Source: an uncultured Candidatus Rokubacteria bacterium (GTDB taxonomy: Bacteria > Methylomirabilota > Methylomirabilia > Rokubacteriales > CSP1-6). From it: a DNA stretch of 64,000 nt. Of the stretch, positions 10,488-14,009 are shown piece after piece. The DNA lies in assembly GCA_963747235.1 (NCBI GenBank), contig CAVVEU010000017.1, positions 1 through 64,000 on the forward strand. The letters are read 5' to 3'. Every line of letters begins with the position of its first letter. Position 1 is the stretch's first letter. The notes below the pieces were generated by a model. The model ran no database searches. It worked only from the letters and a program-made list of their open reading frames with translations, and had not been told where the DNA came from. The translations under genes and the position numbers were made by a program.

Positions 10488-11102
10488 ATGCCCCGCCAGA
10501 AGGAGTTCGACCGGGACGTGGCGCTGGACCGCGCGATGGGCGCCTTCTGGGCCAAGGGCTACGCGGCCACCTCCGTGGAGGACCTGGTCACCCGCATGGG
10601 GATCCAGCGGGGGAGCCTCTATGCCACCTTCGGCGACAAGCGATCGCTGTTCCTCAGCGCGCTCGACCGCTATCAGCGCGTCGTCACGCGGGAGCTCTTC
10701 GAGGCGCTCGAGGCGCCCGGCTCCGGTCTCGAGGCGATCCGGCGCTTCTTTCGCCTGCGGGTGGAGCGGTCGCTCGACCGGAGCCGGCCCGCGGGCTGCC
10801 TGGTCACGAACTCGGCGGTCGAGCTGTCGCGGCGAGATCGTGGCGCCGCGACCAAGGTGGGCAGGTCGCTGGCCGGGCTCGAGGCGGCCTTCCTCCGGAC
10901 CCTCGAGCGGGCGGCGGCACAGGGCGAGCTGGCCGCCACCCGGGACCGGCGGGGTCTCGCCCGGTTCCTGACCAGCAGCGCCCAGGGTCTCTCGGTGATG
11001 GCCAAGGCCTTCCCGGAGCGGGCGGTGCTCGAGGACGTGGTGAAGGTGGTCCTGGCCGCCCTCGAGGCGGATCCCGGTCGGAGGCCGCGGCGGAAGCGCT
11101 AG
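10488..11102 (+). CDS. TetR/AcrR family regulator, NemR/ComR-like
   Basis: FWAKGYAATSVEDLV..MGIQRGSLYATFGDK HTH; GCLVTNS in the C-terminal domain. Confidence 0.9.
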   Translation: MPRQKEFDRDVALDRAMGAFWAKGYAATSVEDLVTRMGIQRGSLYATFGDKRSLFLSALDRYQRVVTRELFEALEAPGSGLEAIRRFFRLRVERSLDRSRPAGCLVTNSAVELSRRDRGAATKVGRSLAGLEAAFLRTLERAAAQGELAATRDRRGLARFLTSSAQGLSVMAKAFPERAVLEDVVKVVLAALEADPGRRPRRKR

Positions 11103-11123
11103 CGACAAACGCAAGGAGACGCC

Positions 11124-11793
11124 ATGAAAGCGGTCGCGTTCGACGCCTACGGCACGCTCTTCGACGTGTTCTCGGTCACCGCGCTCGGCGAGGAGCTGTT
11201 CCCGGGCAAGGGCGACGCGCTGGCCCAGCTCTGGCGGCTCAAGCAGCTGCAGTACAGCATGCTGCGCAGCCTGATGGGCCGGCACCGCGATTTCTGGCGG
11301 CTCACCGAGGACGCCCTCGCCTACGCCACGCGGAGCCTCGGCCTGGACCTCACCCCCGACAAGCGCGCCCGCCTGCTCGAGGCCTACCTGACCCTGGCCG
11401 CGTTCCCCGACGTGAAGCCGGGGCTCGAGGCCCTGAAGCGGCGGGGGCTCCGACTCGCCATCCTGTCCAACGGCGAGCCCAAGATGCTCGAAGCGGCGGC
11501 CCGCAGCGCCGGGATCGTGGGCCTCCTCGACGCCATCCTGAGCGTCGAGGAAGTGAAGATCTTCAAGCCGAGCCCGCGCGTCTACCATCTCGCCCCCGAG
11601 CACCTGCGGGTGCGCCCGGACGAGCTCGGCTTCGTGTCCTCGAACTGCTGGGACGTGGCCGGGGCGGCCTCGGTCGGCCTCGAGACCTTCTGGATCCAGC
11701 GCCGAGCCGCCGAGCCGACGGAGGAGCTCGGCTTCGTCCGCGGACCACACGGTCCACACCATCACCGACCTTGTCCCGCTCCTGCGCGGGTAG
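11124..11793 (+). CDS. haloacid dehalogenase type II (frameshift near 11738)
   Basis: FDAYGTLFD, ILSNG, IFKPSPRVY, VSSNCWDVAGA; C-terminus ADHTVHTITDLVPLLRG-TAG(11791-11793) in the shifted frame. Confidence 0.88.
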
Positions 11794-11804
11794 AGGAGAC
11801 GCCC

Positions 11805-12458
11805 ATGTCACTCGAGGAAAAGCTCGCCACGATCCGGGAGATGGCCAAGACCCGCCAGCCACCGGAGGTGCGCGCGGTCATGCAGCAGGCGATCGAGGAC
11901 CTGCGCGCCTCCGGGATCATGGACCGTGTCGCCAAGGTCGGCACACCCGCGCCCGACTTCACGCTGCCCAACGCCGCGGGCCAGCCGGTGAGCCTGGCCG
12001 CCCTGCGGGCGCGCGGCCCGGTCGTGCTCTCGTTCTACCGCGGCCGCTGGTGACCCTACTGCAACGCAGAGCTGGACGCTCTGCAGCAGGCCCTGCCCGA
12101 GATCACCGCCGCCGGCGCCTCGCTCGTGGTGGTGTCGCCCCAGGTGGCGCGCACCACGCGCGAGACCGAGGAGCCCAAGCCCATGACCTACGAGGTGCTG
12201 CGCGACCTCGGTAATCGCGTGGCCGAGCAGTACGGGCTGGTCTTCACGCTGCCCGAGGCGCTGCAGGCCATCTACACCAAGTTCGGCATCGACCTGCCGA
12301 AGGGCAACGGCGACGGCACCTGGCGCCTGCCCGTCCCGGCCCGCTTCGTGATCGACCGGGAAGGGATCGTCCGCGCGGTCGATGCCGACCCCGACTACAC
12401 GCGCCGCCCCGAGCCAGCGCAGACGATCGAGGTGCTGCGGCGCCTCCGGGCTCGCTGA
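11805..12458 (+). CDS. AhpC/TSA peroxiredoxin-like selenoprotein (UPYC; TGA 12051-12053 = Sec83)
   Basis: GAGGAG RBS; APDFTLP...FYRGRW-TGA-PYCNAEL continues in frame to LPVPARFVIDREG..DPDYTRRPEP; SECIS-like hairpin after the TGA. Confidence 0.88.
12059..12089 (+). promoter_or_regulatory. putative bacterial SECIS element (peroxiredoxin-like gene)
   Basis: GCAGAGC-TGGAC-GCTCTGC perfect stem 12066-12084 plus CTGC/GCAG lower stem; loop starts 19 nt after TGA. Confidence 0.7.
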
Positions 12459-12471
12459 GGAGAGGCGCGCG

Positions 12472-12990
12472 ATGACCACACCGCCGGGACTCGACCCATC
12501 GGTCCGGAGCCGCGAGATCGTCTTCGAGGCGGACGTCACGGGCGTCACGCCGTTTCTCAAGCTGGCCACCGTCAGCCTCAACGGGACCTCGCACATGACC
12601 ATCGCGTGCGACGAGGGGCCGAGCCTGGGTGGCCTGGGCTCGGCGCCCACGCCGCTCATGTACTTCAGCGCCGCGCTCGCGTTCTGACTGATGACCCAGG
12701 TGTCCCGGTACGGGCACATGCTGAAGGTGAGCGTGACGCGGATGACGATGCACGTGAAGGCGAGCTTCCGGGTGACCGGCTCGGTCCTGGACGACACGAT
12801 CGACGGCGAGATGCTCGGGGCCGAGACCACGCTCGCCCTCGAGTCGCCCGACCCTCCGGACCGGGTGGCCCGGGTCGTGCGTAACGCCGAGCGCGGCTGC
12901 TTCGTGATGCAGGCCCTGCTTCGCCCGGTGCCGATCACCGGCCGAACCCTCTTGAACGCCGAGCCCCTGGTGGTGCAAGCCCCTCGTTGA
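12472..12990 (+). CDS. OsmC-like selenoprotein (TGA 12685-12687 = Sec72)
   Basis: GAGGAG RBS; DEGPSLGGLGSAPTPLMYFSAALAF-TGA-LMTQ continues in frame to second Cys in AERGCFV. Confidence 0.82.
12700..12717 (+). promoter_or_regulatory. putative bacterial SECIS element (OsmC-like gene)
   Basis: GTG-T(bulge)-CCCG-GTA-CGGG-CAC stem beginning 12 nt after TGA. Confidence 0.65.
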
Positions 12991-13067
12991 CCCGGGGGCC
13001 CCGGCGGGGCTAGATTCGGTTCCTGGGCGCTCCGTCCCTTCCACCCCGGGGCCCCGAGGAGGCTCGC

Positions 13068-14009
13068 ATGCTCGGTCTGGGAATGGCGTCGTCACATGCC
13101 CCGATGATGTTCCAGAAGGCGCAGTACTGGCCGCGGGTGGTCGGACGGATCCCCGCCGAGGCCCGCGAGCAGCTCCCGCGGAGCGCCCGGGAGGAGATCG
13201 CGAGCCCGGCCATCATCGAGGCAAACATCCAGCGCATCGAGGCCGGCCTGGCCACCCTGCGCGAGCAGCTCCGGGCCTATCGCCCGGACGCGCTCGTGAT
13301 GATCGGCGACGACCAGGGCGATCTGTTCGACGACGCCAACAACCCCACCTTCTCGGTCTACACCGGCGAGGAGCCCCTGTGGGGCCGCAGCGCCCGCGAT
13401 AGCTACGACACGCCGCCGGCGGAGCGGACCAAGCTAGTGTTCCGGCCCCATCCCGAGCTCTCCCGCCATCTCCACCGCGGGCTGGTGAAGCGCGGCTTCG
13501 ACATGGCCAGCATCGGGCGCTTCGATCCGCGTGGCAATCCCACGCGCGGCGTCTCGCACATGGTCTCGAACCTGGTGCCCGAGGTGGATCCGGCGCTCGA
13601 GATCCCGCTGGTGTGCGTGTTCATGAACGAGTACTACCCGCCGCTCCCCGGCGCGGCCCGCTGCGCGCGCCTGGGCGAGGCCATCGCCGACGTCTTCCGC
13701 GATCGGCCGGAGCGCATCGCGATCTACGCCTCGGGCGGCCTCTCCCATTTCCCGGGCATGTACAACGCGGGCTGGATCGACCAGCCGCTCGACCGGTGGA
13801 TTCTCGAGCGGCTCGAGCGCAACGACCTGGCCGCGATGGAGCATCTCTTCACGTTCGACTCCGACGCCATGCGCTCCGGCACGGGCGAAGTCCGGGCGTG
13901 GGTCAGCACGGCCGCCGCGATGAACCGGCCCGCGAAGGTGGTGGACTACGTGCCGGCGCACTGCGCCCAGACCGGGTGCGGCTTCGTCTACTGGCCGGCA
14001 ACCGATTAA
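13068..14009 (+). CDS. class III extradiol ring-cleavage dioxygenase, LigB-like
   Basis: ASSHAP, PDALVMIGDD, ASGGLSHFP, SGTGEVRAW. Confidence 0.8.
   Translation: MLGLGMASSHAPMMFQKAQYWPRVVGRIPAEAREQLPRSAREEIASPAIIEANIQRIEAGLATLREQLRAYRPDALVMIGDDQGDLFDDANNPTFSVYTGEEPLWGRSARDSYDTPPAERTKLVFRPHPELSRHLHRGLVKRGFDMASIGRFDPRGNPTRGVSHMVSNLVPEVDPALEIPLVCVFMNEYYPPLPGAARCARLGEAIADVFRDRPERIAIYASGGLSHFPGMYNAGWIDQPLDRWILERLERNDLAAMEHLFTFDSDAMRSGTGEVRAWVSTAAAMNRPAKVVDYVPAHCAQTGCGFVYWPATD

Follow-up and report, generated by a model that had tools for sequence, protein, structure and literature searches.

A predicted Prx-like UxxC selenoprotein gene with a covarying SECIS hairpin in a Candidatus Rokubacteria genome

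The window analysed here is a stretch of 64,000 nucleotides from an uncultured Candidatus Rokubacteria bacterium (GenBank assembly GCA_963747235.1, contig CAVVEU010000017.1, positions 1 to 64,000 of the forward strand). It contains a Prx-like gene of the AhpC/TSA family that is almost certainly a genuine selenoprotein gene, in which the in-frame TGA at 12051-12053 is predicted to be decoded as selenocysteine (Sec) with the help of a downstream hairpin. The case rests on the conservation of this TGA among homologues and on the hairpin, a candidate bacterial selenocysteine insertion sequence (SECIS), which covaries and is confined to the forms that carry the TGA. The elements of the gene are the following:

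11805..12458, + strand: predicted Prx-like (AhpC/TSA) selenoprotein coding sequence, 217 residues with U83, terminal TGA at 12456-12458 (reading frame and domain match)
12051..12053, + strand: putative Sec codon UGA (codon 83), which opens the UxxC motif U83-P-Y-C86 (reading frame and homologue conservation)
12060..12062, + strand: TGC codon of Cys86, the second UxxC residue (aligned with the peroxidatic Cys of 2cx3)
12066..12084, + strand: core of the candidate bacterial SECIS hairpin, with 5' arm 12066-12072, loop UGGAC 12073-12077 and 3' arm 12078-12084
12059..12089, + strand: optional outer 4-bp helix extending the hairpin, 12059-12062 with 12086-12089 (fold of the window sequence)

The reading frame opens at ATG 11805, behind a ribosome-binding site (GAGGAG, 11793-11798), reads MSLEEK...VVLSFYRGRW-TGA-PYC-NAELDALQ... 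and ends with the terminal TGA. The initial annotation, made from the letters of the DNA, had described the same 217-residue frame, an AhpC/TSA-like identity and the family motif FYRGxWCPxC, all of which stand; the in-frame TGA that it pointed to is real, but its position 12053 was a small slip, being the last base of the codon. The AhpC-TSA model (PF00578) matches residues 45-191 with 102.9 bits (E 1.4e-29) and exceeds its gathering score (cut-off 26). Together with the Redoxin match (63 bits) it extends over residues 44-200, and the internal TGA sits within one AhpC/TSA domain. Orthologues from relatives align over residues 1 to 214-217, and 2,726 homologues are found at E ≤ 1e-10 in a large protein collection. 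In an alignment of 57 family members, F77, R79, G80, W82, P84 and C86 never vary, and conservation reaches 90% or more at Y78, C83 and Y85. At the first Cys of the family CxxC motif the gene has its TGA codon: all 28 Cys-form rows place a C opposite U83, and C86 is retained in all 84 rows of the alignment.

An AlphaFold2 model of the protein forms one compact fold (pLDDT 90.1, pTM 0.89), with a thioredoxin/peroxiredoxin architecture and a two-helix N-terminal extension (residues 3-35). Its best structural matches in the PDB are to peroxiredoxins, namely Bcp4, BcpB and AhpE (E 2.9e-11 to 1.3e-10). In the alignment with 2cx3, an archaeal bacterioferritin comigratory protein / thiol peroxidase, U83 falls on the Ser of SxxC and C86 on the peroxidatic Cys. 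In an NCBIfam scan of the protein no model reaches its cut-off (PrxU NF040737, 26.7 vs 270; SelL-related NF040769, 28.3 vs 120).

Homologues at E ≤ 1e-20 are present in 24 of 61 relatives' genomes, and the aligned codon is TGA in 28 of the 28 homologous stretches of relatives that cover the site. Over all fetched loci the Sec form is represented by 65 instances, corresponding to 52 distinct 48-nt sequences. A search of 251 genomes of the phylum yields matches at E ≤ 1e-40 in 70 of them, with a TGA in 76 of 77 match rows, rows being scored for at least one TGA anywhere and not by its position; the sole row without TGA covers residues 115-215 only, i.e. not the Sec site. No Cys form occurs among the matches in these 251 genomes at that threshold. 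Genomes flagged as unpublished are G029 (locus L027), with one row among the relatives, and G029 and G243, with three rows in the phylum search; when they are subtracted, the counts are 27 of 27 for the relatives and 73 of 74 for the phylum rows.

The hairpin possesses a perfect 7-bp stem, GCAGAGC paired with GCTCTGC, around a 5-nt loop (TGGAC). It begins 12 nt past the TGA, with a spacing of 19 nt between UGA and loop, and the core alone has a free energy of -11.2 kcal/mol. The bacterial SECIS model given in a 2026 review comprises a loop of 3-9 nt, an upper stem of 4-16 bp, a G within the first two nucleotides of the loop, a distance of 16-37 nt from UGA to loop and a minimum free energy of -7.5 kcal/mol or lower (PMC13188914). 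The window hairpin agrees with this model in its 5-nt loop, its 7 bp, its spacing, its energy and the second loop nucleotide, a G with a further G behind it.

Comparison among homologues provides the stronger support. In an alignment (A1) of 43 distinct Sec-form sequences, 99.3% of the cells of the 7-bp helix are paired. Pair 16-34 is GC in 37 sequences, CG in 2 and UA in 2; at pair 17-33, 35 sequences have CG and 7 have UA. Compensatory changes, with both sides altered, thus occur at two pairs and in 11 cells. The covariation score and the number of doubly changed cells both exceed those of all 500 shuffles and of all slid registers. A change from Ala to Val in the 5' arm (GCx to GTx) is paired with a synonymous change from CTG to CTA in the partner Leu codon of the 3' arm, CTA being 1.2% of the Leu codons in the window. 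All seven pairs are formed in 41 of the 43 Sec forms vs 0 of 20 Cys forms, in which 53% of the cells pair. The stem also draws on rare codons: over the 18,793 codons of the window's 49 high-GC3 open reading frames (ORFs), GCA and GCT constitute 2.7% and 3.7% of the Ala codons, and GCA 12066 and GCT 12078 are two of just three GCA/GCT codons in the Prx-like gene. The outer 4-bp helix was considered as part of the conserved element and rejected, with 64% of its cells paired over the 43 sequences. The perfect stem, the rarity of its Ala codons and a constraint on RNA structure had all been proposed in the initial annotation, and the covariation and the restriction to TGA-bearing forms agree with this. 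Conserved TGA and compensatory changes, which it had named as the features to look for in orthologues, are both found, and the converse outcome, Cys in all orthologues and no hairpin, fails. On the window sequence alone, the hairpin is not statistically exceptional.

Several observations weigh against decoding as Sec. The dinucleotide-shuffle z-score of the fold is -0.58 (63 nt, single sequence), and 90 of 2000 synonymous-codon resamples fold as stably as the observed sequence (-18.1 kcal/mol, mean of the resamples -13.0 kcal/mol); the single-sequence fold is weak evidence, and the comparative evidence for the hairpin is strong. Conservation of the stem could be due in part to the conserved peptide NAELxALQ, but the stem is absent from Cys forms in which the encoded peptide is identical or similar. 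An Rfam scan of 11700-13100 at E ≤ 10 returns chance-level matches to unrelated families only, a result that is counted here but is uninformative, because no bacterial SECIS family, if Rfam has one, was reported. The source, a metagenome-assembled genome (MAG) of 5.57 Mb, is 88% complete with 4.9% contamination. The selD model matches both of its selD-like loci (C27:46033-46945 and C8:303114-303868) only piecewise, in two or three segments from different frames, which could reflect assembly indels or a damaged gene.

The Sec machinery is represented in the same genome by selA (500 bits), a SelB winged-helix domain (73.8 bits), selD (227.8 bits) and a tRNA-Sec that scores 69.3 bits, above the Rfam cut-off, and has the anticodon TCA (ARAGORN). 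The genes selB, selA and tRNA-Sec are clustered within ~5 kb on the - strand of contig C14 (40685-45481).

The window contains 14 in-frame TGAs with coding-like frames on both sides, two of which are the Sec sites of the Prx-like gene and of the OsmC-like gene downstream of it. Six others were scanned with Pfam: two lie in frames without a Pfam match, and four divide distinct genes, as ordinary stops between neighbours in the same frame:

25915: stop between Rieske and TetR genes
41521, - strand: stop between solute-binding protein and permease genes
44270, - strand: stop between aminotransferase and FAD oxidoreductase genes
59197: stop between permease and ABC ATPase genes

The TGA of the Prx-like gene could be explained without Sec as a sequencing or assembly error, or as a recent nonsense mutation of TGC, in an ordinary Cys-type gene or a pseudogene. 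A single-base change separates TGC from TGA, Cys forms (45-55% identity) are common in other phyla, and lesions of the indel type occur elsewhere in the assembly. That these lesions are almost all indels, as the initial annotation maintained, is partly borne out by an extra base in the neighbouring HAD hydrolase gene and by the selD matches split between frames; its view that a TGA exactly at this Cys is unlikely to be an error agrees with the same codon being TGA in all relatives' homologues that cover the site. An error or a fresh mutation is also at odds with the phylum matches, where the one exception lies off the site and no Cys form is met at E ≤ 1e-40, and with a covarying hairpin confined to TGA forms, so that its probability is negligible. 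Hardly more credible is a reassignment of UGA to a standard amino acid in this organism (Trp or Gly, codes 4 or 25). Two public proteins (P0003, P0004) do read RGRW-W-PYC at the site, yet TGA terminates both the Prx-like gene (12456-12458) and the OsmC-like gene (12988-12990), the four TGAs listed above act as stops between distinct genes, tRNA-Sec with anticodon TCA is present together with selA, selB and selD, and the site is the position of a redox Cys, not of a Trp.

A true stop at 12051-12053 would yield a peptide of the first 82 residues and perhaps also a second, C-terminal product initiated at an internal GTG (12126). The stretch 12126-12458 is listed as an ORF of 110 aa, and database entries of 125-141 aa (P0009, P0018, P0067, P0120) begin just past the TGA. 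Such a stop would fall in the middle of a domain, within the Pfam match to residues 45-191 and within what is modelled as a single compact fold; it would sever the active-site motif between W82 and P84, and it leaves the conserved hairpin and the Sec machinery unexplained. We consider it very unlikely, if a shade less so than error or reassignment.

With decoding as Sec, UGA 12051-12053 would be read through and not used as a stop. The hairpin 12 nt downstream would act as SECIS and recruit SelB-GTP-Sec-tRNA(Sec) to the ribosome, as in the known bacterial mechanism, with insertion of Sec at position 83; at the terminal UGA, which is followed by no such hairpin, termination would be normal. In the protein, U83 would be placed at the N-terminus of the first thioredoxin-fold helix and form the UxxC redox centre with C86. 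Its selenolate would be the attacking nucleophile, and the oxidised state would contain an Se-S bond with C86. The protein is predicted to be a thiol/selenol-disulfide oxidoreductase or a peroxide reductase.

The window gene, decoded in this manner, would be intact and not a pseudogene. Ordinary gene callers truncate, frameshift or mistranslate a Prx-like selenoprotein gene: among the public gene calls, P0003 and P0004 have W at the TGA, P0005 and P0006 possess a garbled stretch around it, and the four short entries named above are C-terminal fragments whose start lies beyond it. A well-supported SECIS in which compensatory changes occur naturally could help to train selenoprotein finders for high-GC soil bacteria. 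The primary paper on very large Methylomirabilota selenoproteomes is reportedly that of Deng et al. 2026. The predicted Prx-like selenoprotein fits the report of such selenoproteomes in Methylomirabilota MAGs, for which the review cites a MAG with 63 predicted selenoprotein genes (PMC13188914).

The literature has contained Prx-like UxxC selenoproteins since 2005, and the window gene adds a new member to this long-established family. Table 2 of the GOS study lists "Prx-like 1, pfam00578, UxxC, 225 selenoproteins" and "OsmC-like, UxxT" (PMC2398784), the OsmC-like UxxT family appears in Table 3 of an earlier study (PMC1088965), and Prx-like and OsmC-like selenoproteins are also recorded from deltaproteobacterial genomes (PMC1794560). 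The 2026 review names a "Prx-like thiol:disulfide oxidoreductase PF00578 UxxC/UxxU" and a "peroxiredoxin-like family protein" (cd02970) with UxxS (PMC13188914). With 'Prx-like 1', as described in these sources, the window gene shares the PF00578 domain, a SECIS right after the UGA and many Cys homologues (PMC1088965, PMC2398784, PMC1794560). The hosts there are marine metagenomes and Deltaproteobacteria, whereas those found here are soil Rokubacteria/Methylomirabilota and some Proteobacteria; the likeness of the window protein (~215 aa, two-helix N-terminal extension, FYRGxW-U-PYC) to 'Prx-like 1' is one of description, not of sequence. The closest named Cys homologues (50-55% identity) bear the NCBI name of cd02970, 'Peroxiredoxin-like family protein', and membership of the window protein in that family is indicated by homologue names only. 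The cd02970 selenoprotein of the review has UxxS, in contrast to the UxxC of the window protein (PMC13188914).

Compared with PrxU (TxxU, NF040737), likewise a selenoprotein with an AhpC/TSA fold, the Sec of the window protein is located differently: in PrxU it occupies the position of the peroxidatic Cys, here it would stand three residues earlier, at the Thr/Ser position, with Cys86 at the peroxidatic position. The same holds relative to the canonical peroxiredoxin motif PxxxT/SxxC. Proteins of the BCP/PrxQ and AhpE types (3hjp, 5epf, 1xvw, 2cx3) are the best structure matches (template modelling score to target 0.76-0.88) and the best PDB sequence matches, but they have ~20-26% identity and lack both CxxC/UxxC and the two-helix N-terminal extension. 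With the fdhF-type SECIS of Escherichia coli the window hairpin has in common a stem-loop right after the UGA inside the coding region and G then G in a small apical loop; the sequence is unrelated, and the window hairpin shows no bulged U in its 7-bp stem, whereas the hairpin of the neighbouring OsmC-like gene has an unpaired U.

The Prx-like gene lies in a row of five genes on the + strand, in the order TetR, HAD hydrolase, Prx-like, OsmC-like and LigB-family dioxygenase. Its neighbours are:

10488..11102, + strand: TetR-family regulator gene, which recurs by the Prx-like/OsmC-like pair in relatives, co-directional or divergent
11124 to ~11790, + strand: HAD hydrolase gene
12472..12990, + strand: predicted OsmC-like selenoprotein gene, 172 residues, with a putative Sec-UGA at 12685-12687 in AALAF-U-LMT (UxxT) and a candidate SECIS at 12700-12717
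13068..14009, + strand: LigB-family dioxygenase gene

The OsmC-like gene matches the NCBIfam model 'OsmC-related (seleno)protein' (NF041052) with 160.6 bits, above the cut-off of 95, and shares its UxxT. U72 and C143 are kept in 13 of 13 aligned OsmC-like copies. Its hairpin (12700-12717) contains, besides the unpaired U, a GGU-containing loop, and occurs with a variant stem in one relative. The Prx-like and OsmC-like genes are probably co-transcribed, because the gap between them is only 13 nt. Of the 26 loci of the Rokubacteria clade (L049-L074), 11 have an OsmC-like gene no more than 30 nt downstream; in one locus it is 1.3 kb off, in another it persists as a 26-residue remnant, and 10 of the 26 have an adjoining TetR homologue. 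The flanks of 31 more distant loci (L075-L105) contain no OsmC-like homologue. From these arrangements, OsmC-like UxxT and Prx-like genes appear to form a recurrent TetR-linked pair in Rokubacteria, which is modestly new. Under selenoprotein operons the 2026 review gives Prx/SelW-like and Prx-like/AhpD-like pairs and no Prx-like/OsmC-like pair (PMC13188914), and no description of the latter was found in the literature searched. A literature search for Rokubacteria and selenocysteine returned only papers that are not about selenocysteine use in Rokubacteria.

Judged from synteny only, the Prx-like protein would most likely act alongside the OsmC-like selenoprotein in a TetR-linked module for oxidative or electrophile stress. 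A selenoprotein gene pair beside a TetR regulator offers a testable functional link for the two families. A more specific scheme is speculative and, in our estimate, rather improbable: in Rokubacteria the two proteins would constitute a TetR-controlled relay for hydroperoxide detoxification, in which the selenolate of the OsmC-like protein reduces the peroxide and the Prx-like protein serves as its private selenol/thiol reductant, both having become Sec-dependent together and the Prx-like gene having moved with its SECIS from or to Proteobacteria.

The named relatives of the gene are MAGs of Candidatus Rokubacteria / Rokuibacteriota / Methylomirabilota, at 70-94% identity. Sec forms with the same hairpin are found at 45-54% identity in MAGs labelled Hyphomicrobiaceae, Reyranellaceae, Acetobacteraceae, Gammaproteobacteria and "beta proteobacterium"; the Sec loci labelled Alpha-, Beta- or Gammaproteobacteria that share the hairpin core are L075, L077-L082, L084, L085, L088, L089 and L104. 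That proteobacterial MAGs share both this Sec form and its hairpin is modestly new. A quick maximum-likelihood tree was computed from 84 rows (56 Sec, 28 Cys), with stretches of <160 residues and duplicates dropped; the sampling is biased by the search patterns used. Sec forms fall into two groups, of 46 rows (SH-aLRT 93) and 10 rows (SH-aLRT 89), and two changes of state between Sec and Cys suffice on this tree, a number equalled by 0 of 500 label shuffles. The proteobacterial Sec forms nest inside the 46-row group, the Rokubacteria clade, which suggests that the gene has been transferred between phyla together with its SECIS.

Arg180 is present in 46 of 46 members of the window gene's Sec clade; Thr takes its place in 20 of the 28 Cys forms and in all 10 members of the second Sec clade. 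A coupling of this residue to Sec was rejected, as the five Cys forms of the sister clade share it and the second Sec clade lacks it. Arg180 appears to be a clade trait and, from a reading of the motif alone, may be the peroxiredoxin catalytic Arg. A paralogous AhpC/TSA Sec clade (FYRGYW-U-PFC), at 35-39% identity by tblastn, is represented in relatives by loci L037, L039-L042 and L044-L048. It possesses a different hairpin, GCUCCAA-GGGC-UUGGAGC, located 5 nt further downstream than that of the window gene, which is modestly new. A search of the window's own genome at E ≤ 1e-20 did not detect this clade.

Some minor features of the locus and of public records are added here. The sole sigma-70-like promoter match in 11000-13300 is located at 12987-13016 (+ strand), just ahead of the LigB-family dioxygenase gene, and is consistent with a transcription unit that ends there with the Prx-like/OsmC-like pair. 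Comparison with L049, a relative with 94% identity, shows a single additional base in the window towards the 3' end of the HAD hydrolase gene (~11733-11737). Because of this base the HAD frame misses its stop, TAG 11791-11793, and continues to 12053 in the frame of the Prx-like gene (ORF 11124-12053). A second extra base relative to L049 is found at 11800-11804, in the spacer before the ATG; the extra bases are probably assembly indels. Records titled Limnocylindria, Deferrimicrobiaceae, Vicinamibacterales and Verrucomicrobiia (L049, L050, L055 and L072) contain genes that are 71-94% identical to the Rokubacteria gene, and these loci or their duplicates fall among the Rokubacteria rows of the tree; their bin labels may be wrong.

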